DNA of 64,000 nt from Alphaproteobacteria bacterium (GTDB taxonomy: Bacteria; Pseudomonadota; Alphaproteobacteria; MPNO01; UBA830), in contig JAYQSP010000011.1 in the NCBI GenBank assembly GCA_038146925.1, positions 42,816-106,815 on the forward strand, read 5' to 3'. The notes under the pieces are model-generated. The model saw only the letters and a list, made by a program, of their open reading frames with translations, had not been told where the DNA came from and did no database searches. Both the position numbers and the translations under genes were made by a program. Numbering within the stretch: position 1 is the first letter of the stretch; every line of letters begins with the position of its first letter. Of the stretch, positions 1-26,691 are shown piece after piece.

Positions 1-3000
1 AATATCTATATCGCTACAATGCTCTCTTGAAAGCACTCCTTCGTTAGAAATGTAGCCATTAGAAGCACTGAGCTCTTCTGTCTGATACCAGCCTGCAGAA
101 TTTCTTTCTGTTTCATATCTTGATGAGAAAGAAAGAGGTAATTTATCATACCCTTCGTTGCCAAATATTATATCTAGAGCATCACTTGAAAGAGCTACAT
201 TTGCTCTAATATCTTTTTCAAACCTTTCTGTTAAGAAATCAGATACCTGATTATCAATTTGTTTAAGATATGGGAATAATGATGCAATATTTTGAGCAAT
301 AATTTCAGTAACATTATCGGTTGGATTAACTATAAAGTCACTTAACAACGTTTGTTTATCAATTCCAAAATTTGTTGCAATACTTGTATATAAGTTTTCA
401 AGCTCACTTGTGATATTGCTAGCAACATTATCACCAGTAGATTCACATCCTTCTGCCACAGTTAAATCTTCAGTTAAGCTTGAATTAGATTTACCTTCTA
501 GAATTGCATTACCTAATAAAGAAGTAAATGGTGAAATAATTATTGAATTTACGCCTGTGTCATTTATTGAAGGCAATACCATTTGATAAGCATTTTCTAC
601 AACACCAAGAGTTGAATCAATTGCTCCAACAGGAACATCAACAATTATTGGTCTGTTGGCAAGACATTGATATTGGCTTTCATTATTAACGCCTATTGCA
701 AATTCACCATCAGAGTTAGTAGTACCACTAAATTCACCTTCATCAAATTTAAAATTGAAATTCTGATCAATAAATACATCGGCTCCTGAAAGATATCCAT
801 CAATTGCTGTTCCGGTATATACAAGGTCTGGTTCATAATAGACATCAAAACCACCCTCATCCACTCCATAACCTGAAGATTTGTATGCTAGATTTTCGAA
901 TATATCGTAAAAATATCCAGTAAATACATAGTATGCACCTGGAACTGTTTCCCTTGGAATTGTTATATTTGCTGTATAAGTTCCATTTGTTGCATCACCT
1001 GAGATTAACTCCCAAGGCTCAGAACCTTTAATATTAACTGCACTATTTATTTGTTGCACTTCTGGAGCAGGAAGATTGGCGAGATTTACTCCCGAAGTGT
1101 CAGATACTGTGACGGTAAGTGTAATTGTTGCATCTGCTACAGTTACATTTGGTGTATTTGGACTAATTGTTACATCAGAAACGACCGGAGAAGCTCCCTC
1201 TGTTAAACCAATTATTGTAACTCCACCATTTCCCGCACCAGAGCTAGATAACGAATATGATAAGTTATTGTATATATCATAAAAATATCCTGAGAATACT
1301 GAATAGTCAGTGCTTAGGGCTGAAGTTGAAATAGTGAAACTTGCCTCATATGTACCATCAGTATAATCACCTGAAGTTAAAACCCATGGACCATCAGCCT
1401 CAATGGTAATATTTCCTGAATTACCGTAAAGCTGAGGAGTTGGCAATCTATCACTATCAACACTTGAATCATCAGTAACTCTAGTTGTTAGAGTTAATAT
1501 TTTTGATGATTGAGTAACATCTAATGTTGTATCACTCAAGGTTACAGTTTCTATAACGGGTACATTACCTTCTCTGTTTGAAATGATGGTTAATCCACCA
1601 TCTGATGAACCATAATTTGTTAATTCATACTTCTGGTTATTGTGAACATCATAAAAAATTCCTGAATACATTGAGTAATCAGCAGCTGTTGCATCAGTGG
1701 AGATAGTAAATGAAGCACCATATACTCCATCATATTGATCACCTGATAATAAAGTCCAACTTCCACTAGCAGTAATAGTTGTATTTCCTGAATTAGCATA
1801 AAGTTGAGGTGTGTCAAGTCTAGATAAATTAATTCCAGAAACATCAGTTACTCTTATTACAAAAGTAACATCTACAGAATCAAGCGATACATCTATTTCT
1901 CTTATGCTAGGTTCAAAATTTGATAAATCTGGAGCATTTCCTTCAACAACAACACTAAATATATTATCTTGAACTTGAGTTGTTGTTTGTCCTTGCGAAT
2001 CATATATTTCGCCCGTATCAATATTATAGGAGCCTTCTCTTAAATTCTGAGGAAGTGTTCCTTGAGAACTCAGAGTTCCTTCATTTTGATCTCCGCTTAA
2101 GAGCTCCCAATTTGATAAAGTTAATGACTCTAAAGCCCCAGAATTATCATTAGAGGGTTTGATTCCAGAATCAAGATCATAATTCGATGGCATTATTAAT
2201 AAGCCAGATGATTGATTTGATTGACTGTTATAGCTGATTGATGGGGCAGGTAAATTTGATAAAGAGATTCCATCATTAGTTGAAAAATTCATCGTCAACT
2301 CTAATTCAAAAACATCATCCTCTAAGCTAATTACATTTGAATTTGGAACAATTGTACTAAGTTGAATTGAGGTTGGCTCTCCATCACCACCATCACCTCC
2401 ATCACCACCACCTGTAGTAAAGACAGAAATAATTTGTGTAGACTCATTCACTCCATCAGAAGCAGTAACTATTGCTGAATATGAGCTTTCAGTAGGTGAT
2501 GATGTAAAGGATAATTCTCCTGAACTTGAGTCTATTTCTAAATAATCACTTTCGATTGAAAAAGTAACAGTATCTCCCTCTGGGTCAGAAGCTTCTACAC
2601 TACCAATAGTTTCAAATTGTGCATTGTAATTAAACCATCGTGCTGAAGTAATTACTGGAGCTTTATCATTTGCATTTGTTACTGAAACTGTTACTGATTG
2701 AGTTGATGAATTAACCCCATCAGATGCAACAGCTGTAAATGCATAACTAGATCGAGATTCATAGTCTGGTGCTTCTCTGAAGCTTACAACCCCAGTAGTT
2801 GCATTAACACTAAAAGGCGATGCGCCAAATCCTGTAATATTGTAAGTAACAGTATCTCCATCAGGGTCACTAGCAACAAGAGTTCCAACTGTAGTTGTGT
2901 TTTCAACAACTTCAAAGGTATCCTCTGAAGTGAATTCAGGAGCATTGTCACCAACTGTTGTCGAGTCATCAGAGCTAGAGTCTGATTCACTAAATGCTGA

Positions 3001-5340
3001 TGCATCAGATGCTGATAAACCATGGACAACGGAGACAGTTGAAGGTTTATTTGGAGAATATCCTATAAAATTTGATCCTCCGTTAGGTCCTATATTTACT
3101 ATCTCAAGACTAGGTAAATCATCTACTGACCCCAAAGTTAAGGTATCACTATATTCATTTGCTTGTTTTAAGAAAACTACACCAAATGCTGGTTTTGTTA
3201 GGTAATAATCACCTGTTTGTCCTGAATTTTTATATAACCTACCTGTAGTTTCACTTGGCCTGATAACAAACTTTGAAACCCATGGCAAAAAACTTCCAGT
3301 GTCTGGATTAATACAGTCTTCAGTAAATTGGCCATCATAAACGCATCCACCAGGAATACCCCATAACTGATCACCGCCACCATATTGAAGTCTTAGTTCT
3401 TTGCCAGCATATTCTTGATACTTATTACTATCTTCAGGGGCTGTAAAATAAACACTTACAGGTCTACTAAAACTGACGAGCCTTCCATAAGAATCAATTA
3501 AACCTCTATATTGATTATAACGTTGAGGACCAGTTACCCATTGATAATATTCTGAAACTGCACCACTATAAACAGGAGATGTACAATAATCATATTCACT
3601 TATATCACATGTTAATTCGCTTAGTGATGTAACCAAAGCTCCACTAAATGCACCATAACCAAATTGTGAATATGAAAGCGCCTCTGATACTTCATCAGAC
3701 AAAGTTCCAAAAACAGCATCACCACCATCCCCAGCTGTATAAACATTAGTTTCAGAATTAATATTATAAGTAATAACATTTTCAGCTGAAGTACCAAAGG
3801 TATTGTAATTAGCATAAGGGCCTTCATTAGGTGCTTGAGAGCCTGCCTCTAATGCATCTGTTAAGGCTGTAATCTTTGTGTACGTTGGACAATTCTCAAC
3901 ACAATAAAGCGTAGTTGGAAAGTTGGCAGGTGAAACATCTGTCTCAATTTCTTGAGTAACAAGAGCCCTCGTCGGCTCCTTCATTGCATCAACTGAAATA
4001 CCTAAGCCTCCTATACCTGGCATAAAACCAAAAATTCCCCATCTTGAGGAATCACTTAAATAATCGGTAGATGTAAAAGATATTTCTGTATCAAGAGCTC
4101 TATCAAAACAACCTGTCTCGCCACAATAGTTGCTATGCGTTAAGGTAAAAGTATCAGTGTCTGCATCATAATTCATTTTGTATTCACCTGGCTCAGAAAT
4201 ACCAAGTGATGAGTCACTTCCTAAGAAAGATACAAAATTTAATCCACTAAGACTTGATAAGGATTTCTTTGAAACTTCTTTTTTAATTAATTTTCCGCCA
4301 AGGAAATATGTCGTATATTCTAGGCCATTAACTGATGAATCATCGTCATCTCTTACCACTGTTAAACCTGAGGTTAGTGAGCTGGTAGTTTCATTATCAA
4401 AATGTAATCCATAACCATCGGCAAAACCATATTGATTATTATATTTGACTCTGAAACCTTTATTGGGCAAGTCAAATTTTTCACCAGTTTCTGAGTTATA
4501 TAAAAAATATCCAAATACTTCTTTAGTACCTTTTGACTCATCTGTTAAAAAGCATTTCTCTGGTGCATCGTTTATGGGTGAACCATTTTGTATTACTTTT
4601 TTTCTGCAGAAAACAGTTTCGTTATAAGCAAATATATCTGTTCTGGTTGATAACTCACCCATATCACTAAATGTGTATCCAGAAACTGCGCCGCTACCAG
4701 TATCACCATCGCCTAAATTAATAACAGCTTTACTTTCTAGAGTCTGACCACTAAAGGGATCTGTAAACTCCTCACTATATGTAAGCTGAGTACCAGATGC
4801 TTGTAAGTAACCAAGAAAAAAGTCTTGAGAAGTCTCAAGAGTTGTTCCTGTAAATCTCATTAAAAACTCACCAAAAGGTGCTTCATCTGAGACGCCAGCG
4901 GTTGCCTCAGTATAGGTATAAATCATCATTCCCTCTGCACTACTTTCTGTTTCAGGAACCCATGCCTTTACAACCATTGGGTTTGACGTTGATGCCCTAG
5001 AGGCATTCACAACAACTTCTGTATAAGTTATAGCTGTACTTGATGAATTTGATGATGATGAAGCTGCACCACCAGAAGATTGTGGGCCGGATGAAACTTG
5101 TCCAGCTTCATCACAAGCTGCTTGATTTACTAATGCTAAGTAATCATTACCAGTTCTGGTAACCATTAAATCAGGTCTTAATTTAGACATAAAACAAAGA
5201 ATCATTCTTGGTTGACCTAATGTGTCATTTACCTGATCACTTAATGAGAAATACGGAGTATGCTCCGCATAATCACTATCAGATGGGACTTCAGCAAATA
5301 TAGGAAGTGATAATAATATTATTGCTAAAAACTTCTTCAT
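1..5340 (-). CDS. Giant secreted adhesin-like protein, N-terminal ~1780 aa; the C-terminus runs off the window edge. Contains cadherin-like/Ig-like domains.
   Basis: ATG at 5340 is preceded by GAGGAA (RBS). Signal peptide MKKFLAIILLSLPIFA. By-eye translation of the minus strand stays open to position 1. Cadherin-like motif, e.g. ...VVENTTTVGTLVASDPDGDTVTYNITG...APDYESRSSY. The ORF track omits it because it has no in-window stop. Confidence 0.65.
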   Translation of the reverse strand, partial: MKKFLAIILLSLPIFAEVPSDSDYAEHTPYFSLSDQVNDTLGQPRMILCFMSKLRPDLMVTRTGNDYLALVNQAACDEAGQVSSGPQSSGGAASSSSNSSSTAITYTEVVVNASRASTSNPMVVKAWVPETESSAEGMMIYTYTEATAGVSDEAPFGEFLMRFTGTTLETSQDFFLGYLQASGTQLTYSEEFTDPFSGQTLESKAVINLGDGDTGSGAVSGYTFSDMGELSTRTDIFAYNETVFCRKKVIQNGSPINDAPEKCFLTDESKGTKEVFGYFLYNSETGEKFDLPNKGFRVKYNNQYGFADGYGLHFDNETTSSLTSGLTVVRDDDDSSVNGLEYTTYFLGGKLIKKEVSKKSLSSLSGLNFVSFLGSDSSLGISEPGEYKMNYDADTDTFTLTHSNYCGETGCFDRALDTEISFTSTDYLSDSSRWGIFGFMPGIGGLGISVDAMKEPTRALVTQEIETDVSPANFPTTLYCVENCPTYTKITALTDALEAGSQAPNEGPYANYNTFGTSAENVITYNINSETNVYTAGDGGDAVFGTLSDEVSEALSYSQFGYGAFSGALVTSLSELTCDISEYDYCTSPVYSGAVSEYYQWVTGPQRYNQYRGLIDSYGRLVSFSRPVSVYFTAPEDSNKYQEYAGKELRLQYGGGDQLWGIPGGCVYDGQFTEDCINPDTGSFLPWVSKFVIRPSETTGRLYKNSGQTGDYYLTKPAFGVVFLKQANEYSDTLTLGSVDDLPSLEIVNIGPNGGSNFIGYSPNKPSTVSVVHGLSASDASAFSESDSSSDDSTTVGDNAPEFTSEDTFEVVENTTTVGTLVASDPDGDTVTYNITGFGASPFSVNATTGVVSFREAPDYESRSSYAFTAVASDGVNSSTQSVTVSVTNANDKAPVITSARWFNYNAQFETIGSVEASDPEGDTVTFSIESDYLEIDSSSGELSFTSSPTESSYSAIVTASDGVNESTQIISVFTTGGGDGGDGGDGEPTSIQLSTIVPNSNVISLEDDVFELELTMNFSTNDGISLSNLPAPSISYNSQSNQSSGLLIMPSNYDLDSGIKPSNDNSGALESLTLSNWELLSGDQNEGTLSSQGTLPQNLREGSYNIDTGEIYDSQGQTTTQVQDNIFSVVVEGNAPDLSNFEPSIREIDVSLDSVDVTFVIRVTDVSGINLSRLDTPQLYANSGNTTITASGSWTLLSGDQYDGVYGASFTISTDATAADYSMYSGIFYDVHNNQKYELTNYGSSDGGLTIISNREGNVPVIETVTLSDTTLDVTQSSKILTLTTRVTDDSSVDSDRLPTPQLYGNSGNITIEADGPWVLTSGDYTDGTYEASFTISTSALSTDYSVFSGYFYDIYNNLSYSLSSSGAGNGGVTIIGLTEGASPVVSDVTISPNTPNVTVADATITLTVTVSDTSGVNLANLPAPEVQQINSAVNIKGSEPWELISGDATNGTYTANITIPRETVPGAYYVFTGYFYDIFENLAYKSSGYGVDEGGFDVYYEPDLVYTGTAIDGYLSGADVFIDQNFNFKFDEGEFSGTTNSDGEFAIGVNNESQYQCLANRPIIVDVPVGAIDSTLGVVENAYQMVLPSINDTGVNSIIISPFTSLLGNAILEGKSNSSLTEDLTVAEGCESTGDNVASNITSELENLYTSIATNFGIDKQTLLSDFIVNPTDNVTEIIAQNIASLFPYLKQIDNQVSDFLTERFEKDIRANVALSSDALDIIFGNEGYDKLPLSFSSRYETERNSAGWYQTEELSASNGYISNEGVLSREHCSDIDI

Positions 5341-5395
5341 GATTCCTCGCTTTGTGTTTCTACTAGCTGTACACTTTGCGGCAATATAATCCCAC

Positions 5396-7081
5396 CTATT
5401 GATCATCATCAGCATCATTAATAATATTTATCGTGATTTCTTGAGTGCTTGTATTTTCTCCATCACTAGCTGTTACTATTGCGGTGTAACTGGTCTTAGT
5501 CTCGTAATCTGAGCTGAGGCAAAGGTTAGAACACCAGCTGAAGTTATTTCAAGTTCAGTACCTGAAACAGTGAAAGTAACATCATCGCCATCTGCATCAG
5601 TTGCTGTTACGGTTCCAATAGCTGTTTGGTTTTCAGCAGCACTAAAAGTAGCACTAGAGGTAAATACTGGAGCCACATCATTAACATTTGTTACATTAAC
5701 AGTAATGTTTTGTTGAGATATATTTACTCCATCTGTAGCAGTTACTGTTGCTGTGTAAGTAGCTTTAGTTTCATAATCTGGAGCTGAGGCAAAGGTTAGA
5801 ACACCAGCTGAGGTTATTTCAAGCTCATCTCCAGATATGATAAATGTTACTGCATCACCATCTGCATCAGTTGCTGTTACGGTTCCAATAGCTGTTTGGT
5901 TTTCAGCAGCACTAAAGGTAGCTTCTGAAGTAAAGCTTGGACTATTATCATTAACATTAGTTACATTAACGGTAATAGCTTGAGTGGTTGAGTTAGTGCC
6001 ATCACTAGCAGTTACTGTTGCTGTGTAAGTAGCTTTAGTTTCGTAATCTGGAGCTGAGGCAAAGGTTAGAACACCAGCTGAGGTTATTTCAAGTTCATCT
6101 CCAGATATGATAAATGTTACATCATCACCATCTGCATCAGTTGCTGTTACGGTTCCAATAGCTGTTTGGTTTTCAGCAGCACTAAAGGTAGCTTCTGAAG
6201 TAAAGCTTGGACTATTATCATTAACATTAGTTACATTAACTGTAATAGCTTGAGTGGTTGAGTTAGTGCCATCACTGGCAGTTACTGTTGCTGTGTAAGT
6301 AGCTTTAGTTTCGTAATCTGGAGCTGAGGCAAAGGTTAGAACACCAGCTGAGGTTATTTCAAGCTCATCTCCAGATATGATAAATGTTACTGCATCACCA
6401 TCTGCATCAGTTGCTGTTACGGTTCCAATAGCTGTTTGGTTTTCAGCAGCACTAAAGGTAGCTTCTGAAGTAAAGCTTGGACTATTATCATTAACATTAG
6501 TTACATTAACGGTAATAGCTTGAGTGGTTGAGTTAGTGCCATCACTGGCAGTTACTGTTGCTGTGTAAGTAGCTTTAGTTTCGTAATCTGGAGCTGAGGC
6601 AAAGGTTAGAACACCAGCTGAAGTTATTTCAAGTTCAGTACCTGAAACAGTGAAAGTAACATCATCGCCATCTGCATCAGTTGCTGTTACAGTTCCAATA
6701 GCTGTTTGGTTTTCAGCAGCACTAAAGGTAGCTTCTGAAGTAAAGCTTGGACTATTATCATTAACATTAGTTACATTAACGGTAATAGCTTGAGTGGTTG
6801 AGTTAGTGCCATCACTGGCAGTTACTGTAGCTGTGTAAGTAGCTTTAGTTTCATAATCAGGAGCTGAGGCAAAGGTTAGAACACCAGCTGAAGTTATTTC
6901 AAGTTCAGTACCTGAAACAGTGAAAGTAACATCATCGCCATCTGCATCAGTTGCTGTTACGGTTCCAATAGCTGTTTGGTTTTCAGCAGCACTAAAGGTA
7001 GCTTCTGAAGTAAAGCTTGGGCTATTATCGTTTTCGTTGGTTATCGTAATAGTTACATCTTTGGTTACTGTCTCAGTGCCG
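5396..7081 (-). pseudogene. Frame-disrupted repeat-domain continuation of the lipoprotein adhesin gene that starts at 8779. The stop is at 5396-5398 (...INIINDADDDQ*).
   Basis: Only a 66-aa ORF (5476..5676) survives in-frame. There is a 1-nt difference at 7082-7110 relative to the paralog at 25070, which reads through. There is also a 1-nt loss near 5510 versus sibling repeats. This could be real decay or repeat-region sequence error. Confidence 0.5.
5400..7080. repeat. Tandem coding repeats with a 270-bp (90-aa) period, about 6 copies. Cadherin-like repeat units (VTATDADGDDVTFTVSGTELEITSAGVLTFASAPDYETKSSYSATVTASDG).
   Basis: The string actattatcattaacattagttacattaac recurs at 5941, 6211, 6481 and 6751 (period 270), with a diverged first copy. 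Near-identical units. Confidence 0.85.
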
Positions 7082-8779
7082 TCAGTTAAAGGTCAGTGTG
7101 ATTGAGTATGAGCTCTTAGTTTCATAATCTGGTGCTTCTTTAAAGGTTAGAACATTTTCATCAGATAAATTAAAGCTATCGGCATCTGTACCACCTAGAG
7201 TTAATGTTAATTCATCTTCATCTACATCTGAGACTGAAACAGTTGTTACTGCTGTTTGGTTTTCAGCTACTTGAATAGTAGATGCTATATCAATAGAGGG
7301 TGCATCATTAACCGCATCAATGGTTATGGTTACATCAGCACTTGAAGTCTTATCGCCTTGAGTGATGGTGTAACTAAAGACATCAGTACCGTTGTAGTCT
7401 GTATCAGGAGTATAAACAATCTGTTCAGGAGATGACTCAGCAATTGTGGTTGTACCATTGGTTCCATTACTTGTTGTTACTGTTATAGGAGCTGTTGTCA
7501 CATATGAGTCATTTGCAACAACATTTATAGTTACAGCTGTATCCTCAGATGTGATTGTACTATCAGGTATAGCGCTGATATCGGGTGCTATTTCTCCAGA
7601 ATCTACATTCTGATCTTCAGCTATATAAGTTAATAGGTCTTCAGTATAACTAGTTACTGTCTCAGCAGTTGCAGTGCCATTAGCTATAGCCTGGATATCG
7701 GTTTGTAGGGTTGAAACCGCAAAACGTATAACTGAAGTAGTTAAATCATCAGAGGATTTAACTTCAATAACTGGCATAACACCAGCCAGAGCTTTAGTGG
7801 TATTTGCTTTAGCTGTCTCATCAATGGTTACTGATTTTGCTGCTATGACATTATCAACTACATTAGTAATAAAAGCTTCGGTTTCAATATCTACTTTGGT
7901 TTCTGTTTCAGTGTATTCTTTTTCTATCTCTTCAGTGATTGACTTAAAGTAGTCCTGAGTTGTTTCGGTTGTGGTATTTAAATTATTGGTTATGTTTTGC
8001 AAAGCAAAAGCAAGAACGGTTAACTGGTTACCCTTCTCATACAAATAATCGTTAATACCACCATCGCCTTTGTTAGCAACCGGATCAAAAGTAAAAACAT
8101 CAATGGATGCATCAATACCCAATGCTGCATTAACCAGTGAAGCATCTTCCATAAAAGCAGCAACTGAAGTTACAGGGGTAACCGCTTTAAACTCTGAATG
8201 GCCAGTTAGTTTATGAGTAATTAAAAGATTATCTAAAAGGGTTTGCGAATCTAAATCGGTTCCACCGATGGATACTAAATTACCGTTAGCATAACGAATA
8301 GTAAATTTACCTTCATTATCTGAAGTAGTTGAATTTTCATTTGAATCACATGTCCAACTCTCATCTTCATCAATACAAACTTCAGCCCCTGAAATATAAC
8401 CATCAACTACTACACCATCGGTTTCTCTATACCCCTCAACAGTAACAGATGCTGATCTAGTGCCACCTGCACCAGTACACGAAATAGAAAAAGTGTTATC
8501 ACCTACTGTAGTAATAGTTACTGCTTCTGAACCAGAAGTTCCTGTTTGGCTAGTCCATGATGCAGAACAAGAATTTGCATTGGTTGAGGACCAAGTAAGG
8601 GTTGAAGTACTTTCAAGAAGTACTGAAGTTGGATCAGCTGATAAATTAACGGTTGGAGCTGGAGTTGCTGGAGGTGTTGGTGTACTTCCACCGCCACCGC
8701 CACCGCCACATGAAGAAATAATAAATGCAGCAGTAATTGCTATTACTGTTCGTAAACTATAAGAACCCCTACTTCTCAT
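7082..8779 (-). CDS. Lipoprotein adhesin, N-terminal 565 aa with Ig-like plus cadherin-like domains. It probably originally continued through the repeats to 5396.
   Basis: Intact ORF. Lipobox IISSC followed by a Gly run. C-terminal ...APDYETKSSY cadherin motif. Paralogous to 25000-26470. Confidence 0.75.
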   Translation of the reverse strand: MRSRGSYSLRTVIAITAAFIISSCGGGGGGGSTPTPPATPAPTVNLSADPTSVLLESTSTLTWSSTNANSCSASWTSQTGTSGSEAVTITTVGDNTFSISCTGAGGTRSASVTVEGYRETDGVVVDGYISGAEVCIDEDESWTCDSNENSTTSDNEGKFTIRYANGNLVSIGGTDLDSQTLLDNLLITHKLTGHSEFKAVTPVTSVAAFMEDASLVNAALGIDASIDVFTFDPVANKGDGGINDYLYEKGNQLTVLAFALQNITNNLNTTTETTQDYFKSITEEIEKEYTETETKVDIETEAFITNVVDNVIAAKSVTIDETAKANTTKALAGVMPVIEVKSSDDLTTSVIRFAVSTLQTDIQAIANGTATAETVTSYTEDLLTYIAEDQNVDSGEIAPDISAIPDSTITSEDTAVTINVVANDSYVTTAPITVTTSNGTNGTTTIAESSPEQIVYTPDTDYNGTDVFSYTITQGDKTSSADVTITIDAVNDAPSIDIASTIQVAENQTAVTTVSVSDVDEDELTLTLGGTDADSFNLSDENVLTFKEAPDYETKSSYSITLTFN

Positions 8780-8820
8780 ATATATTATAAATTAACCTAA
8801 AAAGTTAAATATGTAAAATA

Positions 8821-9819
8821 TTAAAACGTGTATTTTAAAGAAATGCCTATCTCACCATATGGTTGGTCAAAATAATGTTCTGTTCTTTGATTAAAGGTTA
8901 TTGGCTCAAATCCAATGAGATTATTTTTATAAATATCACCATACAATAGAAGACTAAGATTTTCAGCATAGAATTCAATACCAGCTCTTAATTTAAAATT
9001 TACTTTTGGTGTTTTATATAATTGGTGGTAATTTTTAAAATTTAATAACACTAAGTCATATTCAGCTATGACATTAAAATTATAAATAGATATAAATTTT
9101 TGCTTTAATCCAAGATTAATTTGTTGTGATACCCATTGATCTTTTTGAGGTAATTTTCTTAGTGCTAAATCAATTGCATCACCTAAAATATTTCCATTAA
9201 TAACTAAATTTAATAAAAAAGGAGATTTGATATCTTCGATAGGTGATAGCCAGTCATAATTATATTCTGTTTCTTGAAATTCAAATTTAGTTGAATATAT
9301 CCAAAAATTATTCCAATATTTTTTAAAACCTACTCCATAGGTATCAGCTTCTCCTTCAATTGAAATAATATTGGATCCTAATTGTTGATATTTATCATTA
9401 CTAGAGGTGATAGAAAATGACGCATTCTCGCAACCTCCCAAAATAATACCGCTAAATTCATAGCAACTAAAAACTTGAGGATTTGCTTTTTGGGTTGAAT
9501 TAAAAAAATAAATTAAATTGTCTTCATCAAGTGTATATCCGATCATAAATCCTTCTTTTTTTGTATCAAGATTTACATCCTTAGGTTCAGAATTTCTCTT
9601 TAATGATAAATTTATTTTATTTTGAAAAATATTAGCCTTAAGTTTTTTATAGCTGTAACCGATTTCAATGGCTTCAGAGCTATTTTCATCAAAAGATACA
9701 GGAACATCTGGTAAAAAATTCCATTCTGCATCCATAAATTTTTTATCGAAAAGAATATATGTATTTTCAGAAAATAATGGCAATGATAGTAATATTAAAA
9801 AAAAGCGATTTAGTTTCAT
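8821..9819 (-). CDS. Outer-membrane beta-barrel protein (porin/OMP-like), hypothetical.
   Basis: 332-aa ORF. Signal peptide MKLNRFFLILLSLPLF. The C-terminal ...ISLKYTF ends in aromatic Phe, typical of OM barrels. Confidence 0.6.
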   Translation of the reverse strand: MKLNRFFLILLSLPLFSENTYILFDKKFMDAEWNFLPDVPVSFDENSSEAIEIGYSYKKLKANIFQNKINLSLKRNSEPKDVNLDTKKEGFMIGYTLDEDNLIYFFNSTQKANPQVFSCYEFSGIILGGCENASFSITSSNDKYQQLGSNIISIEGEADTYGVGFKKYWNNFWIYSTKFEFQETEYNYDWLSPIEDIKSPFLLNLVINGNILGDAIDLALRKLPQKDQWVSQQINLGLKQKFISIYNFNVIAEYDLVLLNFKNYHQLYKTPKVNFKLRAGIEFYAENLSLLLYGDIYKNNLIGFEPITFNQRTEHYFDQPYGEIGISLKYTF

Positions 9820-9829
9820 TGAATAAAAA

Positions 9830-10609
9830 TCATAATGTTATATCAAAAAAATCTTCAACGGTTTCGTGTGCAATTTTTTGCAGGAATTCTCTATCAATTG
9901 AATTAATTTTTTCAAAGTAATTGTATTTTATTCCAACTGGTGTCGTCTGAGTAATTGATGCAAAAACAACACAAGAAGCTAGATAAGTTCCTAAAAGGCT
10001 CGGGTGACTTCCATCAAATGATTTATGCAGTTCTATATTGGGCATAACTCTGTACGCGTTTTCAAATGCGATACCGACCGGAATGACTAATGCATTATTG
10101 TTGTTGCCTGCATTAATATACATTTTTTTTATATCTTTGATCATTTTTGGATTTGTATTCTTATGAGGAGCAACATATGCATGAATCATGTATAAGGCTG
10201 CTTCTGCTCCTGATGCATGAACTTTGTCAACAATCTGCTCTATACTATCTGCAAATATCTTTCTTTCAGTTGCTGTATTTGTCTCACCACTCCCGCCCTG
10301 AATAATGACAAGTTCAAAAGGTTTTTTTGCACCAATTTTTTGGTAGTTAAGTGGATGCTCGATATTATGATGCCAAGAACGTGATCCACTTATTGTTACT
10401 AATTTATAATTTGTAGTATTAATTTCTTTTGAATAATACTCCTCCAACATTCTTCTGACATGATTATGAAGACTATCGTTATAGTATAAATAGCTATTAC
10501 CAATATACAGAACTCTTTCAGGAGTTATATTTTTTAAGCTAGTTATTTTGATTTCAGAAGAAAATAAAAAATTAGAAAATATTAAAATTAGTAGTAATAT
10601 GTAATTCAT
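9830..10609 (-). CDS. Secreted SGNH/GDSL-type hydrolase (esterase-like).
   Basis: 259 aa. N-terminal signal peptide. Block I-like VLYIGNSY and a C-terminal FDGSHPS (DxxH catalytic block). Confidence 0.6.
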   Translation of the reverse strand: MNYILLLILIFSNFLFSSEIKITSLKNITPERVLYIGNSYLYYNDSLHNHVRRMLEEYYSKEINTTNYKLVTISGSRSWHHNIEHPLNYQKIGAKKPFELVIIQGGSGETNTATERKIFADSIEQIVDKVHASGAEAALYMIHAYVAPHKNTNPKMIKDIKKMYINAGNNNNALVIPVGIAFENAYRVMPNIELHKSFDGSHPSLLGTYLASCVVFASITQTTPVGIKYNYFEKINSIDREFLQKIAHETVEDFFDITL

Positions 10610-10668
10610 AAAAAAATTTTAACTCAAATACAACAAAGATTATAAATATTTCAAATACATATAAAGAT

Positions 10669-12105
10669 GTGGTAGTTGTTGGGGCTGGAATATCAGGTAT
10701 TGCAGCTGGATACAATCTAAAAAAATCTTGTCCTAATAAATCCTTTCTAATAATAGAGGGGAGAGATAATATTGGTGGAACCTGGGATCTCTTTAAGTAC
10801 CCAGGCATAAGATCAGATTCAGATATGCATACTCTTGGATATCGATTTAAACCATGGATACATGATAAATCTATCGCTGATGGACCATCAATTCTTGAAT
10901 ACCTAAAAGAAACAGTACATGAAAATGATTTAATGAAAAATATTCTTCTCAAGCACAAGATGATTTCAGCAAATTGGAATACAAAAAAATTAAAATGGGA
11001 GTTGCAAATAAAGGAAAAGGACGAAATAAAAAATATGACTTGTAATTTCTTATTTTTATGTGGAGGTTATTATAGTTATACAAAACCTCATATGCCCTAC
11101 TTTAAAAATCAAGAAGATTTTAATGGTCAAATAATTCATCCTCAATTTTGGGATGAAACAATTAATTATAAAAATAAAAAAATAGCAGTCATAGGAAGTG
11201 GCGCAACTGCAATGACAATTGTTCCAGCTATTGCAGAAATAGCTAACCATGTTGCAATGATTCAAAGATCACCCACATATGTTATATCTAGACCAAGTGA
11301 AGATATGATAAACAAATTTCTAAAGAAGTTTCTTCCTGTAAAAATTAGCTATTTTTTAACTAGATGGAAGAATATCTTATTTCAAAGCTGGAGCTTCTTT
11401 CTTGCAAGAAAATATCCAGAGGCTACCAAAAATAAATTACTAGATATGATAAGAGATGAACTTGGTGTGGAATATGATGTTGAAAAACACTTTACTCCTG
11501 CTTATAAACCATGGGACCAAAGAGTATGTCTGGTTCCAGATAGTGATCTTTTTGTATCAATAAGAAATAAAAAAGCATCGATAATAACTGATACTATTAA
11601 TAGATTTCAACATGATGGAATTCTTCTAGACTCTGGAGAAAAAGTTGATGCTGATATCATTATTACTGCTACAGGCATTGAATTAAATTCATTTAATGGA
11701 ATTGAGGTAACAATTGATAAATTAAAAGTAATTCCAAATGAAAGATTAACTTATAAAGGAATGTTATTAAGTGGTGTACCAAATTTTGCTATGTCATTTG
11801 GGTATGTGAATGCATCTTGGACCTTACGAGCTGATTTAACTTGTGAATATGTTTGCAGACTAATAAACCTAATGGATAAAAAAGGAGTTAGTTGTTGTGA
11901 ACCGATAGATGATAAAAATGCCTATGGCGATGACCGATTAATTGACTTTACCTCAGGTTATTTTGAAAGAGGTCTCTATAATATGCCCAAGCAAGGCAAC
12001 AAAGCGCCATGGAAAAACTATCAAAACTACCTTAAAGATATTTTTGCTGTAAGAATTTTTTCAATTAAAGATAAGAATCTAAATTTTTATAACTCTATTA
12101 AATAA
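10669..12105 (+). CDS. Type I Baeyer-Villiger / flavin-containing monooxygenase.
   Basis: 478 aa. FAD-binding GAGISGI. BVMO fingerprint FNGQIIHPQFWD (FxGxxxHxxxWD). Second Rossmann motif GSGATAMT. Confidence 0.85.
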   Translation: MVVVGAGISGIAAGYNLKKSCPNKSFLIIEGRDNIGGTWDLFKYPGIRSDSDMHTLGYRFKPWIHDKSIADGPSILEYLKETVHENDLMKNILLKHKMISANWNTKKLKWELQIKEKDEIKNMTCNFLFLCGGYYSYTKPHMPYFKNQEDFNGQIIHPQFWDETINYKNKKIAVIGSGATAMTIVPAIAEIANHVAMIQRSPTYVISRPSEDMINKFLKKFLPVKISYFLTRWKNILFQSWSFFLARKYPEATKNKLLDMIRDELGVEYDVEKHFTPAYKPWDQRVCLVPDSDLFVSIRNKKASIITDTINRFQHDGILLDSGEKVDADIIITATGIELNSFNGIEVTIDKLKVIPNERLTYKGMLLSGVPNFAMSFGYVNASWTLRADLTCEYVCRLINLMDKKGVSCCEPIDDKNAYGDDRLIDFTSGYFERGLYNMPKQGNKAPWKNYQNYLKDIFAVRIFSIKDKNLNFYNSIK

Positions 12106-13574
12106 TTTATTTTCAAAACGTTTATAAAAAGCAGCGTTTATCAAATTTTAAATAATTTTATTGATATCTAAGTGGAAAGTAGAAACCAATATTTAAAGAG
12201 GTAAATTGAATGCTAGAAAATTGATTATTGAAATCTACAGATGGTGATATCTCAATATCATTATTTTTACCAAATTTATTAATCATGCCCAAGCTAATTA
12301 CTTCTCTATTCCAATTGTCTACTGACTCATAGGCATAATTTACATAGAAAGTATCTTTATAATTCTGATTAAAGTATTTCTCAACATCTAGATTTATTTG
12401 ATAACCACAACTCAATTCATCCATAGTGATTATAGAATTTTCACACAGAACACCAATAGACATATCTGTTGATAGAATTGTTTGATTTGATTTAGTGTCC
12501 TCATCTAAAATAAAAGTTGTTGAAAGAGGTAATGATATTCTTCGAGATGTGACATTATTTAAATAAAGTTGAATATTTTTCTTTGTTTCACCTAAATAAG
12601 ATGCATTTAAAGAGGTCTTATCTATTTTTTCTTTTCCATAATTATATATAAAGTCTGTTGTATATAACCTATCATTTAAATAAAAATCACCTGTTAAAAT
12701 AAATCCATATGTTTTCCTTAAGCTTTCTGTTTTACCGGCTAAATGGAAACCGTCGCTATCAGAAAAGTCAAAATTGTAATTAACATCGCCAAATGATGTA
12801 TAGACCCCTCCTCTAAATGATTCAGAAATATTTTTATGTGCATAAATTATAATTTCAGAGGTATCTGTTTTTAGATTGCTATTATCAAAACCATACAAAT
12901 TACCGTCTGATTTAGATTTTATTATTCCTATACCTATTAAAGAGGAATCAGAAATATCTTTTTCTAAGATCAAAGAAGCCATAGAAGTCTTTGTTCTATC
13001 ATCAAGATTCTCAAAAGTTATATAACTTACATCAGTATATAGACGTATACTTTTTTCACATTCTAAATGCTGATCACTATAATCAAGACTTATATTGTTA
13101 CTATTTGGTCTAAATTGAGTTCTTGGTTCTTCCTCATAACATCGATTTTTATCATTTATATTCTTTAATATTGATTCATTATAAAAAATTGAATTATTTA
13201 GACTCTTTGAAATTTCATACTCTAAGTTACTTTGAAGTTTTGACTCTATTTCATTTAATTTTATAAGAACTTCCTCTGAATTGGTTACCCTTATTATTAA
13301 AGTTAGTGTTGCATCATTTTCATAAATATCATTTGCAACTATATTTATTAAATAATCATTATTTGTATCAGCATCTGCTGGGTTTTCATAATCTGGAGCT
13401 GATGCAAAAGTTAGAACCCCCGATGAGCTAATACTAAAGAGTGCTGAATCGGTACCGCTTAATGACCAAGTAACACTTTCATCAGCAGTAAAGCTAGTAA
13501 CAGCGGTTTGATTTTCATTGGTCATAATAAAGTCATTATCAATTATGGGGCTGCCATCTTCATTTAGTATTAAA

Positions 13575-14690
13575 GGAGCAGTTGTATCAACTACATTAAC
13601 AGTTCTAGTTGCAGTACCAGTATTACCTGATGCATCTGTAGCTGAATAAGTAACTGTATAACTACCTACCTTTGTGGTATCAACATCTGAACTAGATGTT
13701 ACTGTTTCACCACCATCGGCTATAGCACCTTCATCGTTATAAGTAGAACCAAGTTCTACTGTAGCTGGATTATCACCGATTACTGTAATAACCGGAGCAG
13801 TTGTATCAACTACATTAACAGTTCTAGTTGCAGTACCAGTATTACCTGATGCATCTGTAGCTGAATAAGTAACTGTATAACTACCTACCTTTGTGGTATC
13901 AACATCTGAACTAGATGTTACTGTTTCACCACCATCGGCTATAGCACCTTCATCGTTATAAGTAGAACCAAGTTCTACTGTAGCTGGATTATCACCGATT
14001 ACTGTAATAACCGGAGCAGTTGTATCAACTACATTAACAGTTCTAGTTGCAGTACCAGTATTACCTGATGCATCTGTAGCTGAATAAGTAACTGTATAAC
14101 TACCTACCTTTGTGGTATCAACATCTGAACTAGATGTTACTGTTTCACCACCATCGGCTATAGCACCTTCATCGTTATAAGTAGAACCAAGTTCTACTGT
14201 AGCTGGATTATCACCGATTACTGTAATAACCGGAGCAGTTGTATCAACTACATTAACAGTTCTAGTTGCAGTACCAGTATTACCTGAAGGATCAGTAGAT
14301 GTATAAGTAATTGTGTAAGTGCCAACAGTATCAGCATCTACACTACCACTTGATGTAACAGTTACATCACCAGAAAGATCAGTGGCTGTAGCACCTTCAT
14401 CGTTATAAGTAGAACCAAGTTCTACTGTAGCTGGATTATCACCGATTACTGTAATAACCGGAGCAGTTGTATCAACTACATTAACAGTTCTAGTTGCAGT
14501 ACCAGTATTACCTGAAGGATCAGTAGATGTATAAGTAATTGTGTAAGTGCCAACAGTATCAGCATCTACACTACCACTTGATGTAACAGTTACATCACCA
14601 GAAAGATCAGTGGCTGTAGCACCTTCATCGTTATAAGTAGAACCAAGTTCTACTGTAGCTGGATTATCACCGATTACTGTAATAACCGGA
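13575..14690. repeat. Tandem coding repeats, 219-bp units (x3) then about 238-bp variant units (x2).
   Basis: The string ggagcagttgtatcaactacattaacagttctagttgcagtaccagt recurs at 13575, 13794, 14013, 14232, 14470 and 14691. Confidence 0.8.
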
Positions 14691-15162
14691 GCAGTTGTAT
14701 CAACTACATTAACAGTTCTAGTTGCAGTACCAGTATTACCATGATCAGGACACTTTCATCGTTATAAAGTAGAACCAAGTTTGATGAACCACTAGTTAAG
14801 TAATAACTGCTGTATAAGTGTCCAACAGCATCAGCAATACGATGTGTTATTTGTATCAGCAGCATCTGGAGCTGATACACTACCACTTGAGTAACACTTT
14901 CATGTAGTAACAGCGGTTTGTTACATCATAGAACCAGAAAGATCAGTAAGCTAAAGTCTGTAGCATCAGTACAATAATATTAAGTTGATAATCATTATTT
15001 GTATCAGCATCTGCTGGGTTTTCATAATCTATGCAAAGTAGAACCTGATGAGCTAATACTAAAGAGTGCTGAATCGGTCTTAATAAGTAACACTTTCATC
15101 CGCTTAACAGCGGTTTGATTTTCATTAACATCAATGAACCACTAGTTGAATCGGTAATAACT

Positions 15163-17245
15163 GGAGCTGTATCATCGAGATCTAATACATTAACTTGATA
15201 AGCTAAAGTCGTTGCATTAGCAGCAGCATCAGTAGCAATAATATTAAGTTGATAATCATTATTTGTATCAGCATCTGCTGGGTTTTCATAATCTGGAGCT
15301 GATGCAAAAGTTAGAACCCCCGATGAGCTAATACTAAAGAGTGCTGAATCGGTACCGCTTAATGACCAAGTAACACTTTCATCAGCAGTAAAGCTAGTAA
15401 CAGCGGTTTGATTTTCATTAACATCAATAGAACCACTAGTTGAATCGGTAATAACTGGAGCTGTATCATCGAGATCTAATACATTAACTTGATAAGCTAA
15501 AGTCGTTGCATTAGCAGCAGCATCAGTAGCAATAATATTAAGTTGATAATCATTATTTGTATCAGCATCTGCTGGGTTTTCATAATCTGGAGCTGATGCA
15601 AAAGTTAGAACCCCCGATGAGCTAATACTAAAGAGTGCTGAATCGGTACCGCTTAATGACCAAGTAACACTTTCATCAGCAGTAAAGCTAGTAACAGCGG
15701 TTTGATTTTCATTAACATCAATAGAACCACTAGTTGAATCGGTAATAACTGGAGCTGTATCATCGAGATCTAATACATTAACTTGATAAGCTAAAGTCGT
15801 TGCATTAGCAGCAGCATCAGTAGCAATAATATTAAGTTGATAATCATTATTTGTATCAGCATCTGCTGGGTTTTCATAATCTGAGCTGATGCAAAAAGTT
15901 AGAACCCCTAAAGTCGATGAGCTAATACTAAAGAGTGCTGAATCGGTACCGCTTAATGACCAAGTAACACTTTCATCAGCAGTAAAGCTAGTAACAGCGG
16001 TTTGATTTTCATTAACATCAATAGAACCACTAGTTGAATCGGTAATAACTGGAGCTGTATCATCGAGATCTAATACATTAACTTGATAAGCTAAAGTCGT
16101 TGCATTAGCAGCAGCATCAGTAGCAATAATATTAAGTTGATAATCATTATTTGTATCAGCATCTGCTGGGTTTTCATAATCTGGAGCTGATGCAAAAGTT
16201 AGAACCCCCGATGAGCTAATACTAAAGAGTGCTGAATCGGTACCGCTTAATGACCAAGTAACACTTTCATCAGCAGTAAAGCTAGTAACAGCGGTTTGAT
16301 TTTCATTAACATCAATAGAACCACTAGTTGAATCGGTAATAACTGGAGCTGTAGAGTCTGCACCACTGGTATCATCGAGATCTAATACATTAACTTGATA
16401 AGCTAAAGTCGTTGCATTAGCAGCAGCATCAGTAGCAATAATATTAAGTTGATAATCATTATTTGTATCAGCATCTGCTGGGTTTTCATAATCTGGAGCT
16501 GATGCAAAAGTTAGAACCCCCGATGAGCTAATACTAAAGAGTGCTGAATCGGTACCGCTTAATGACCAAGTAACACTTTCATCAGCAGTAAAGCTAGTAA
16601 CAGCGGTTTGATTTTCATTAACATCAATAGAACCACTAGTTGAATCGGTAATAACTGGAGCTGTATCATCGAGATCTAATACATTAACTTGATAAGCTAA
16701 AGTCGTTGCATTAGCAGCAGAATCAGTACCAATAATATTAAGTTGATAATCATTATTTGTATCAGCATCTGCTGGGTTTTCATAATCTGGAGCTGATGCA
16801 AAAGTTAGAACCCCCGATGAGCTAATACTAAAGAGTGCTGAATCGGTACCGCTTAATGACCAAGTAACACTTTCATCAGCAGTAAAGCTAGTAACAGCGG
16901 TTTGATTTTCATTAACATCAATAGAACCACTAGTTGAATCGGTAATAACTGGAGCTGTATCATCGAGATCTAATACATTAACTTGATAAGCTAAAGTCGT
17001 TGCATTAGCAGCAGCATCAGTAGCAATAATATTAAGTTGATAATCATTATTTGTATCAGCATCTGCTGGGTTTTCATAATCTGGAGCTGATGCAAAAAGT
17101 TAGAACCCCGATGAGCTAATACTAAAGAGTGCTGAATCGGTACCGCTTAATGACCAAGTAACACTTTCATCAGCAGTAAAGCTAGTAACAGCGGTTTGAT
17201 TTTCATTAACATCAATAGAACCACTAGTTGAATCGGTAATAACTG
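15163..17245. repeat. Tandem coding repeats, 294 bp (98 aa) x7, above 98% identical. One copy carries an 18-bp insertion.
   Basis: The string ggagctgtatcatcgagatctaatacattaac recurs at 15163, 15457, 15751, 16051, 16345, 16657 and 16951. Confidence 0.9.
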
Positions 17246-18198
17246 GAGCTGTAGAGTCTGCAACAAATGATACTGAGGCTGTATTAGAAATAGCTGAGCC
17301 ATTCAGGGTACCAGATATAGTTGAAGTAGTAACGCTATTAGATGAAGTAAGAGTCGCAGAATATGAGCCATCTTGATTATCTGTAACTGAACCTAGAATT
17401 CCAGCAGAAGCGGTCAACAAGACAGTGTCTCCACCTGCAGATAGATTAAAATCATTTAAATCCTTTAGTTGGACTGTAATATCAGATGTAGATGTCCCAT
17501 TAGCTAAAATAGATGTTGGGTCTGCTGTAATAGTTGATCTAGATGGAGAAGCAGTATTAGTAGCTGACAAACCTGAAACATATGAGTTAAGAGCATCAAG
17601 CAATCCTTTAGTAGCAGCATTTCCTGATACAGATGAACCATCACTATAACTAAAGCCTTGAGTTGCTAGTATGTAAGTTTTTTGATGTCCAGATGATAGT
17701 GAATATGATGAACCATCGTTTATTGAAGATGTAGTAATAAGGCCTATGCCTTTAAGTGTGCTGCCTTGAGTATCTCTCCAGTTGACTGAGGCATTAAAAG
17801 AGTATGATGAACCATCAGAGTATTTTAAAGTAAGCGTGACATCATAATCGTTACCTTGTGTGCCACCAAATGTACCATCATCTGTCTCATCAGAAATAAT
17901 TGCTTCTGTTATGTTTAATGTTGAAAAAGATACTAAAGCATCTGGTTGATGACCATTATTTGTATATTCACCTATAGCTCCAGCAGAGAAACCCGCAACA
18001 GCAGTTGCAGCAGAAAGAGATGAATAAAAAAAAGTAGAAAAGAAGATTAAAGTTAAATAATTAAAATTTTTAATTGTTCTTTTTTTGGACATATTCACGG
18101 ATTCTATCTGATTATTATTATAAAAACTAGATAAAAAATGGTGGAGCTATTGGTTCAAAACTGGAACCAGCTTATCCCCTACTTCAAACAATTAGATT

Positions 18199-26470: not shown

Positions 26471-26505
26471 GTAAAAAATTCTTTTTATCTTTAAAAGAAA
26501 TATTT

Positions 26506-26667: not shown

Positions 26668-26691
26668 ACGAAAACAGACGGGTGAACGGCG

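Follow-up and report, generated by a model that had tools for sequence, protein, structure and literature searches.

The window analyzed here, a stretch of DNA 64,000 nt in length, carries two very large genes on the reverse strand, termed paralogue A (5396-8779) and paralogue B (19216-26505), and changes organism abruptly at 26505/26506. The stretches of the two genes that align to each other are termed copy 1 (in paralogue A) and copy 2 (23416-26478, reverse strand, in paralogue B). The low-GC part of the window (1-26505) is DNA of a SAR86-clade gammaproteobacterium and forms a variable island of very large cell-surface proteins. The best relatives of a 565-aa ORF in paralogue A are found in SAR86 single-cell and metagenome genomes with 85-87% amino acid identity. 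Variable lipoproteins of the Mycoplasma type, suggested by the low GC content, lipoprotein signal and repeats, were set aside as the relatives are from SAR86.

Domain architecture of paralogues A and B

Paralogue A is a lipoprotein gene of ~1125 codons, defined by three-frame translation and Pfam, that is split by two 1-nt indels as written. The frame-corrected protein is 1125 aa in length, and intact homologues of 765-970 aa number in the hundreds in marine sequence. The protein starts with a signal peptide with the lipobox ISSC and a Gly/Pro/Thr linker, followed by an Ig-like domain, a helical domain, a Big_9 domain and ~6.5 cadherin-like repeats of 90 aa, with the Pfam families Big_9, Cadherin_5, Cadherin_4 and Cadherin all above their cut-offs. 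For the ORFs of both copies the scores are 51-118 bits for Big_9 (cut-off 23.6), 60-105 bits for Cadherin (28.8) and 30-92 bits for Cadherin_4 (25.1). The cadherin-like domains are encoded by a 270-bp tandem array at 5460-7029 on the reverse strand (5.8 units with 93% matches in TRF; Pfam Cadherin 2.1e-30). Viewed by eye, the N terminus MRSRGSYSLRTVIAITAAFIISSC-GGGGGGG has a basic n-region and a hydrophobic core, with I-S-S-C fitting the pattern [LVI][ASTVI][GAS]C, and the lipobox residue Cys-24 is invariant in 25 homologues. A PDB sequence search with the N-terminal module returned nothing below E = 0.29, and its AlphaFold model (mean pLDDT 67) gave only generic Ig/PKD-like matches against the PDB in Foldseek, with TM-scores of 0.24 or less. 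The 200-aa helical domain behind the Ig-like domain matched no Pfam family and no solved structure.

The 565-aa ORF (7082-8779, reverse strand), which is identical to database protein P0003 and which the earlier note described as an intact lipoprotein ORF, is the N-terminal part of paralogue A. Its stop codon is created by a +1 frameshift near 7094, and the frame runs on into the 270-bp repeats, resuming as frame +1 from 7092, up to a -1 frameshift near 5510. The first of these sites, at 7090-7096 on the reverse strand, contains a single extra base where copy 1 reads 'CTGACCTTTAAC' and local alignments place one C fewer in copy 2 and in the homologous loci L083 and L004 (7094/25082 among the listed indels). 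The second, at 5506-5514 on the same strand, lacks a single base, with 'TCAGCT-CAGATTAC' in copy 1 aligned to 'GCTCCAGATTA' in copy 2, L083, L004 and L006, and disrupts the conserved motif SAPDYETK. Both frameshifts are 1-nt indels that are not present in the 3-4 comparators. An alternative genetic code was rejected as an explanation for the missing ORFs, the repeats being open in the shifted frame under table 11.

Paralogue B comprises ~2400 codons, of which copy 2 forms the front part, and was delineated from intact ORFs in L008, L012 and L015, frameshift-aware alignments and three-frame translation. The N-terminal module, Big_9 and cadherin repeats are followed by a cupredoxin-like stretch, two further cadherin units, a subtilisin S8 domain and a P domain. 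As written, the gene is cut at its 5' end by the junction and contains at least ~30 frameshifts. Elsewhere it exists as one intact ORF in SAR86 genomes, with lengths of 2014 aa (L008), 2148 aa (L012) and 1683 aa (L015), each joining the N-terminal module, cadherin repeats, S8 domain and P domain in a single protein. The architecture of the L008 protein was examined with Pfam, its S8 domain scoring 110 bits for PF00082. The 270-bp tandem array of paralogue B is at 23385-25021 on the reverse strand (TRF, 6.0 units with 84% matches), so that the 270-bp repeats reported earlier are present as a tandem array in both copies. Copy 2 lacks the first ~96 codons, equivalent in copy 1 to the region from 8491 to the start codon at 8779, and is broken into ~8 ORF pieces by seven frameshifts near 26443, 26361, 26056, 25754, 24019, 23448 and 23221. 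Once frame-corrected, it contains no in-frame stop in ~900 codons, has 83% amino acid identity to copy 1 and preserves the domain motifs. The C terminus of paralogue B is an intact 192-aa ORF at 19216-19791 on the reverse strand with a proprotein-convertase P domain (P_proprotein, 2.6e-13, 50.3 bits compared with a cut-off of 21), for which the nearest database relatives are 63% identical. In the S8 domain, which is split by 18-28 frameshifts, the serine motif GTSSAAPTVAG can still be read, and an 'HGT' motif is present in another frame. Searches of public data for a same-strain paralogue B found none, with the P-domain protein search returning fragments of at most 63% identity and a metagenome scan with the front of copy 2 reaching at most 89% at the amino acid level.

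By domain content, paralogues A and B are predicted surface lipoproteins with cadherin-like repeats. They resemble the bacterial cadherin-like/Big_9 surface proteins (PF17963, PF17803, PF17892 and PF00028) in having tandem 90-aa β-sandwich repeats that form an extended stalk behind an N-terminal anchor and differ in the anchor itself, which is a lipoprotein signal in place of a type I secretion signal or LPXTG. The SAR86 homologues are annotated at NCBI as 'Ig-like domain-containing protein'; no paper was found with experimental work on the function of any member of these cadherin-repeat proteins, and none linking them to SAR86. Paralogue B ends with S8 and P domains as do the subtilisin/kexin type proteases (PF00082 and PF01483) and the L008 protein, and its P domain is intact in the window. 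Unlike in those proteases, ~1400 aa of lipoprotein module and cadherin repeats precede the protease in the same protein, and its catalytic domain cannot be read as a single frame in the window. The order of domains suggests that paralogue B is presumably a protease held off the outer membrane by a stalk of cadherin repeats.

Similarity of the two copies and gene order

A blastn comparison of the window with itself aligns copy 1 (5433-8491) with copy 2 (23416-26478) in the same orientation at an offset of 17,983 nt (E = 0), which bears out the long direct repeat ~17 kb apart described in the earlier note. Over 3091 alignment columns there are 439 mismatches, 37 gap openings and 60 gap columns, and the identity of 83.9% falls short of the 90-98% reported before. 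Mismatches range from 2 to 44 per 200 nt and identity per 100 nt from 59 to 99%. Values of 96-99% are restricted to ~0.6 kb of the 5' part (about 7900-8400 compared with 25900-26300), and the repeat arrays are ~20% different; with this distribution of mismatches the copy pair is not substitution-poor as had been claimed. Many of the listed indels within the repeat arrays are compensating gap pairs, that is alignment artefacts of diverged DNA. The description of copy 2 as rich in indels holds in part, the excess of frame-breaking indels being real but modest (7 frameshifts in 3.4 kb) and many of the array indels being such artefacts.

The same gene content and flanks with uniformly high identity, as would mark a recent segmental duplication, are not seen. 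Only the N-terminal module and the repeat type are common to both copies; downstream, A is followed by a giant protein and B continues into an S8 protease domain. In L032 the order is B (3' end), small gene, FMO, GDSL, A and giant protein, the same as in the window, and L008 carries B, small gene, FMO and GDSL; neither has the window's 12.1-18.7 kb region between its FMO gene and small gene. The copies represent an N-terminal module, made up of a lipoprotein signal, Ig-like domain, helical domain and Big_9, that two distinct genes have in common. The order of these genes is conserved in independent SAR86 assemblies, and neither a copied locus nor collapsed strain variants, both proposed in the earlier note, find support. 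Several SAR86 genomes carry 2-3 such paralogues.

As a separate observation, SAR86 genomes repeatedly hold a conserved gene pair that shares the lipoprotein/Ig-like/helical anchor module, with one member fused to an S8 protease; a search for literature on this gene pair found none. The published SAR86 hypervariable region, which holds glycosyltransferases and other outer-membrane modification genes (PMC3569297), is similar to the island in the window in being a cluster of surface-exposed products with content varying among related genomes, at which short-read assemblies break, and differs in that the island here holds giant repeat proteins.

Indel-dense tracts and the junction at 26505/26506

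In paralogue B the highest density of indels is in a tract at 19962-21234 (reverse strand), which covers the S8 catalytic domain and has a raw-read-like error profile compared with the homologues L117, L141 and L009. Against these, 102-137 gap openings are counted with blastn and at least 39 indel events with MAFFT, the positions being inferred from 75-90%-identical homologues and the count varying with gap parameters. Frameshift-aware alignment gives 18-28 frameshifts, and the longest stop-free stretch is 65 aa. Among themselves, the three homologues differ by 62-109 substitutions with no gap columns and are open throughout. In all, at least 39 to ~130 indels accompany ~160-250 substitutions in this tract compared with no gaps in homologues at similar divergence. 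A second indel-dense tract is found at ~14750-15270 (reverse strand) from repeat-unit alignment, the tile table and translation, and lies at the junction of a 294-bp and a 219-bp array in a third large surface-protein gene. Aligned with each other, the units 14962-15171 and 17013-17253 have 4 mismatches, whereas 8 gaps are opened over 31 columns.

Counted in 500-nt tiles, gap openings reach 36-41 in 20001-21500 and 44 in tile 14501, with 1-8 in copy 2, compared with zero in both 8436-13067 and 26506-38553. The former of these clean stretches lies between the copies and contains a 332-aa protein, a GDSL-like protein, an FMO-like oxidoreductase and the C terminus of an 865-aa ORF; this stretch, to which the direct same-strain comparison of the SAR86 sequence extends, matches contigs of the same strain in JGI metagenome and Logan run assemblies at 99.6-100% identity. 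Insertion events are no rarer than deletions in the frameshift-aware and homologue alignments, and there is no deletion bias. No clear association with homopolymers is seen, the same base adjoining the change in 1 of 4 insertions and 1 of 9 deletions of a single base, and the indels therefore point to no specific sequencing platform.

At the right-hand end of copy 2, clean alignment to copy 1 is lost in an AT-rich SAR86 tail (26479-26505) that looks like a low-quality contig or read end. High-GC sequence begins abruptly at 26506 within a gene, the last ~160 nt of an alphaproteobacterial rlmN on the forward strand (26506-26667). The GC content rises from ~0.38 to 0.64 within 50 nt, the flanking DNA having 35% GC on the SAR86 side and 62% GC on the alphaproteobacterial side, and relatives of the encoded proteins change from SAR86 to Rhodospirillaceae-like. 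Four independent contigs (L079-L082) are 99.4-99.7% identical to 26506-38553 with 0-1 gaps, and upstream of 26506 they continue into a complete rlmN, EamA, MFS and further genes. A single NCBI contig of 1,389,458 bp is on record with proteins from either side. The composition and the organism change abruptly at the same point, and independent assemblies are colinear through it without the other partner, as at a chimeric junction; 26505/26506 is a chimeric join or contig concatenation in mid-rlmN within the 1.39-Mb record. The 37-nt tail at 26473-26509 has no second occurrence in the window or in 174 loci, and no sign of an inverted MDA-type chimera or of adapter was found. Known inter-genome chimeric contigs likewise switch organism over a few bases, with a gene interrupted on either side.

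The SAR86 sequence is fragile elsewhere as well. In other assemblies, contigs of the same strain stop at the repeats on either side, at 8436-8714 and at 13067, one of them 45-55 nt inside the block that the copies share. These breaks, together with the end of the SAR86 sequence within copy 2 at the artificial junction, agree with the earlier view of the region as assembly-fragile.

Origin of the indels and of the copy pair

The reading that copies 1 and 2 belong to paralogous SAR86 surface genes, that their small indels are most likely errors of quality and that the SAR86 DNA has been joined artificially to unrelated DNA is held with considerable confidence. The small indels most likely represent sequence errors and not mutations. 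The suggestion of an error-prone consensus in the earlier note is backed mostly from outside the two copies (19962-21234 and ~14750-15270), with the two 1-nt indels in copy 1 in addition. Sequence quality is very uneven, with unique stretches essentially perfect and repeat-containing stretches, above all paralogue B, probably retaining uncorrected indel errors in a profile like that of a poorly polished or single-read long-read consensus, the technology being suggested by the profile itself. Frameshift-type errors confined to tracts beside essentially error-free sequence are likewise seen as residual indel errors in long-read and metagenome-derived assemblies; a difference is that the indels here have no clear homopolymer link. 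A failure to polish repeats does not fully explain the location of the errors, since the worst tract is unique sequence and not a repeat.

Under the active pseudogenisation raised in the earlier note, the whole of paralogue B with its copy 2 part would be a redundant surface-protein gene in genuine decay, and the indels would be real mutations. Its breakage at many places over 7 kb, its position within a variable island that differs in gene content among SAR86 genomes and a P domain without a close relative in public data are in keeping with decay. Bacterial pseudogene decay is deletion-biased, and SAR86 genomes are streamlined with few pseudogenes. Of the nonsense codons, relaxed constraint and deletion bias that accompany frameshifts in a genuine pseudogene, stops are lacking from frame-corrected copy 2, which keeps all its domain motifs, and insertions at least equal deletions in frequency; the indel/substitution ratio is also far above that of functional homologues of like divergence, and on these grounds decay is disfavoured. 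Similar damage in copy 1 and in the last 294-bp array unit of another gene, and an indel density that climbs toward the artificial junction, count against it further and make it unlikely. Phase variation or programmed frameshifting of the surface-protein genes is scarcely credible as the source of the frameshifts. The phase-variable genes of other bacteria classically include those for surface-exposed repeat proteins, and both copy 1 frameshifts are 1-nt changes, but the sites lie in 2-nt runs, not in the long homopolymer or short-repeat tracts of a contingency locus, and no switching mechanism needs the dozens of shifts in paralogue B.

A further reading is that the duplication itself is an artefact, with copy 2 a strain variant (allele) of copy 1 misplaced 18 kb away by the assembler. 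The record is demonstrably mis-joined at 26505/26506, and the 96-99% identity in the 5' part is much closer than the 69-80% of paralogue pairs in other SAR86 genomes. Against this, copy 2 continues within one gene into cadherin, S8 and P domains, exactly as its intact counterparts in L008, L012 and L015 do, independent assemblies (L008 and L032) carry the order B ... FMO, GDSL, A and giant protein on one contig, and the repeat arrays are too far apart (~20%), so that a misplaced allele is even less probable than decay. Both parts of the record being on one 1.39-Mb contig might also be read as a genuine horizontally acquired island of 26.5 kb in an alphaproteobacterial chromosome. This has next to no likelihood given that the housekeeping gene rlmN is interrupted at the join but intact in the four independent contigs of the same alphaproteobacterium, and that a SAR86 gene is cut there too; the SAR86 part is 100% identical to contigs with SAR86-like flanks, and the 27-point GC gap gives no sign of amelioration.

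The 96-99% blocks lie outside what the paralogy and quality-error reading explains, and could be due to gene conversion or to consensus cross-talk. If the blocks, which lie within the 5' 1.6 kb, are real, a tentative explanation, less likely than not, is that the anchor modules of the two different surface-protein genes have recently undergone gene conversion in this lineage.

The main consequence is a quality flag on a public record, as in the 1.39-Mb NCBI contig an alphaproteobacterial chromosome is joined within rlmN to SAR86 DNA of at least 26.5 kb. Its raw-read-like error tracts break genes of ~1100-2400 codons into many short ORFs, and the 565-aa fragment is already present in protein collections as if complete. 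Pangenome, pseudogene or horizontal-transfer analyses using the record would be misled. For the biology of SAR86 little is gained, as the pattern described as indel-rich and substitution-poor is best explained by sequence quality and paralogy of this kind is nothing unusual in marine surface-protein islands. Should the gene conversion be true, it would indicate concerted evolution or cassette-like exchange in the surface-protein island of a streamlined planktonic bacterium, and a part of the frameshifts could in that case represent real variation in the population.

Two paralogous surface-protein genes

Comparison of the window with itself bears out the long same-orientation repeat described in the earlier note, with 5433-8491 (copy 1) aligning to 23416-26478 (copy 2) at an offset of 17,983 nt. 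The identity of 83.9% over 3091 columns (439 mismatches, 37 gap openings and 60 gap columns) is lower than the 90-98% claimed, and the pair is not substitution-poor as had been proposed, with 2-44 mismatches per 200-nt step. Identity of 96-99% is limited to ~0.6 kb (7900-8400 versus 25900-26300). The 270-bp repeats reported in each copy are confirmed by Tandem Repeats Finder, at 5460-7029 in copy 1 (period 270, 5.8 units, 93% matches) and at 23385-25021 in copy 2 (6.0 units, 84% matches). Within these arrays most of the apparent indels between the copies come as compensating pairs of gaps separated by only a few bases, an artefact of aligning ~20% diverged DNA.

Copy 1 belongs to paralogue A (5396-8779, minus strand), which looks like a repeat-stalk surface protein, the label "adhesin" being drawn from domain content only. 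The 565-aa ORF at its N-terminal end (7082-8779) begins with a lipoprotein signal (…AAFIISSC, then a Gly run) and continues with an Ig-like domain, an unassigned domain, Big_9 and the first cadherin-like unit; its closest relatives in the genome collection come from SAR86, both from single-cell genomes and from MAGs (85-87% amino acid identity). The ORF had been taken as intact, but the protein runs on past its stop codon in the +1 frame for 538 codons (7092 to 5479), across all of the 270-bp units, and then shifts back for the final ~38 codons ending at 5396. Both frame breaks are single-base indels. Near 7094 the window carries one extra base ('CTGACCTTTAAC') absent from copy 2 and from the homologous loci L083 and L004, and near 5510 it is one base short ('GCT-CAGATTAC'), the base being present in copy 2, L083, L004 and L006 and its loss disrupting the conserved SAPDYETK motif. 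The repaired paralogue A has ~1125 codons; homologues in the database are unbroken, with lengths of 765-970 aa.

The module shared by the two copies comprises a lipoprotein anchor and, after it, an Ig-like sandwich that is confidently predicted (residues ~40-120); the helical domain at residues ~200-395 gave no match to a Pfam family, PDB sequence or solved fold. Relatives of the first Ig-like domain (residues ~40-115, window ~8435-8660, motif TLTWSSTNA.SC) are found in very distant lineages, Patescibacteria, Acidobacteria and Verrucomicrobia among them, with 40-56% identity, which suggests a widely shared surface-protein module. The (GGCGGT)n run at ~8690-8715, forming the poly-Gly linker after the lipobox Cys, differs by 6 nt from the same-strain contigs L088 and L085 and represents natural length variation of a short tandem repeat.

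Copy 2 is split into ORF pieces of 112-594 aa, with frameshifts near 26443, 26361, 26056, 25754, 24019, 23448 and 23221 in the frameshift-aware protein-to-DNA alignment. Downstream on the minus strand, three-frame translation reveals cadherin units, a cupredoxin-like stretch and a subtilisin catalytic domain in constantly changing frames, including two more 270-bp-type units (21204-21791) and a Ser-site motif, GTSSAAPTVAG, that remains readable, and the proprotein-convertase P domain follows as an intact 192-aa ORF (19216-19791, minus strand, Pfam 50 bits). This series is a single uninterrupted ORF in the homologous loci L008 (2014 aa, at 4548-10592 of that locus; Big_9, Cadherin, Peptidase_S8 and P_proprotein by Pfam), L012 (2148 aa) and L015 (1683 aa). 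Copy 2 therefore forms the beginning of another, larger gene, paralogue B (19216-26505, minus strand), instead of duplicating the locus. Paralogue B encodes a putative surface-tethered subtilisin. The cupredoxin-like stretch lies between cadherin units (~21800-22000, minus strand), is also found in L008 and reads '...TYTFVHPTAHPFRFSTTADGTHGGG...GLYYYCSIH', with no Pfam match for its ORF fragment. The DNA similarity of the subtilisin S8 tract (19962-21234) to the loci L117, L141 and L009 ends at exactly 19962 in all three, and relatives of the intact P-domain ORF just beyond are only 63% identical; the interval 19791-19962 may mark a natural site of domain exchange or a place where assembly segments with different support meet.

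Over the first 1.7 kb, the corresponding paralogues in five other SAR86 genomes share 69-80% identity, spread uniformly along the sequence; the window pair is 89% identical over this region, a mosaic with the 96-99% blocks. One locus (L120) is the best outside relative of both copies. The blocks could reflect recent gene conversion between the two anchor modules, or cross-talk from one copy to the other while the consensus was built.

Organization of the SAR86 island

The gene order in L008 is paralogue B, a small gene, an FMO-like gene and a GDSL-like gene, and in L032 the 3' end of paralogue B is followed by the same three genes, paralogue A and a giant protein. The window has the L032 order with an extra 6.6 kb (12.1-18.7 kb) carrying a third large repeat-protein gene, and the N-terminal module is found at two or three loci in several SAR86 genomes. 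The conserved order and the multiple module loci per genome identify the copies as genuine paralogues in a variable surface-protein island and rule out an assembly duplication or misplaced alleles as their source; the repeat is real and the copies are ordinary paralogues. A hypervariable surface-related region has been reported in SAR86 (PMC3569297), although its gene content differs from that of the island in the window. A literature search found no papers on these SAR86 proteins.

The third large surface-protein gene (12161-18098, minus strand, ~1980 codons) has a lipoprotein start with Invasin_D3/Big_1, followed by a cadherin-like array of 7.8 units of 294 bp (98 aa; 14962-17253) and a Bact_surface_Ig-like/HYR array of 5.3 units of 219 bp (13575-14745). 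A stop at 17100-17102 ('SSSGF*LFASAPDYE' compared with 'SSSGVLTFASAPDYE' in sister units) and a tract dense in indels at ~14750-15270 interrupt the gene. Immediately downstream of paralogue A, in the position it also has in L083 and L032, lies a giant minus-strand ORF of at least 1790 aa (1-5370; Cadherin, DUF7034, DUF7035 and DUF7743) that extends beyond the left edge of the window and has no frameshifts over 5.4 kb. A 165-aa protein without family assignment (18199-18696, plus strand; also in L009, L016 and L023, the last with two copies) is 94-98% conserved and adjoins these surface-protein genes in several SAR86 genomes.

The junction at 26505/26506

The GC content is ~35% to the left of 26500 and ~62% between 26500 and 64000. 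The genes of this right-hand part are intact housekeeping genes of a Rhodospirillaceae-like alphaproteobacterium, among them argG, folD and yidC. The match to the independent alphaproteobacterial contigs L079-L082 begins exactly at 26506, ~160 nt before the rlmN end, and upstream these contigs carry the remainder of rlmN and further genes. On the left, the similarity of copy 2 to copy 1 stops at 26478, ~96 codons short of the start codon (from the alignment end at 8491 and the start at 8779 in copy 1), insertions of 2-5 nt are present in the last ~150 nt of the SAR86 part, and no second occurrence of the 37-nt tail at the junction was found in the window or in the 174 loci compared. The join is not biological and truncates, at a single position, genes belonging to two unrelated organisms. 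By exact-sequence look-up, proteins encoded on either side are recorded on one NCBI contig of 1,389,458 bp; the join is therefore present in the public record, which is chimeric or concatenated.

Distribution and origin of the small indels

When 500-nt tiles of 1-27000 are each compared with the best relative among 174 fetched loci, gap openings per tile number 0 in 9001-13000 (at most 2 mismatches), 0-11 in 1-8500, 1-8 within copy 2 and 36-41 in 20001-21500, the last with only 47-79 mismatches. The S8 tract has 102-137 gap openings against L117, L141 and L009 by blastn and 39 indel events, most of a length not divisible by three, in a four-way MAFFT alignment, in which these three loci differ among themselves by 62-109 substitutions and no gap columns. 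All three are open throughout the tract, but in the window no stop-free stretch there exceeds 65 aa, and frameshift-aware alignment gives 18-28 frame changes over the S8/P-domain part. A second such tract is found at ~14750-15270, where comparing the last unit of the 294-bp array with its sister units gives 4 mismatches but 8 gap openings and 31 gap columns. The indel-rich, substitution-poor signature claimed earlier is present in the window, but mainly outside the segments in which it had been described. Clean sequence is found at 8436-13067, 99.6-100% identical to eleven contigs (JGI metagenome and Logan run assemblies) that are evidently of the same strain, the only gap being 6 nt in the Gly-codon run, and at 26506-38553, which matches four independent metagenome contigs at 99.4-99.7% identity with 0-1 gaps. 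The same-strain contigs end at 8436-8714 and 13067, on entering the repeated genes, one of them 45-55 nt inside the block common to both copies. Samples containing this SAR86 strain are JGI 3300063995, 3300063452 and 3300063453 and the runs SRR26337518-SRR26337574.

Judged from sequence, the small indels are probably artefacts of uneven consensus quality and not mutations; the excess, real as written, would stem from such unevenness in a record chimeric at 26505/26506. Genuine pseudogenisation of paralogue B is a most improbable account of the damage, since copy 2, once its frames are corrected, reads through ~900 codons without an in-frame stop and keeps all domain motifs (83% protein identity to copy 1), and the indel/substitution ratio of the S8 tract is far above that of functional homologues of similar divergence. 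Bacterial pseudogenes have a deletion bias, whereas insertions here are at least as common as deletions. The damage also lies in tracts beside perfect sequence, hits three different genes and rises towards the junction. The attribution to consensus errors is weakened in that the indels show no clear link to homopolymers, the most heavily affected tract lies in unique sequence and not in repeats, and no same-strain sequence of paralogue B was found in the collections searched. The main value of the finding is as a data-quality warning.
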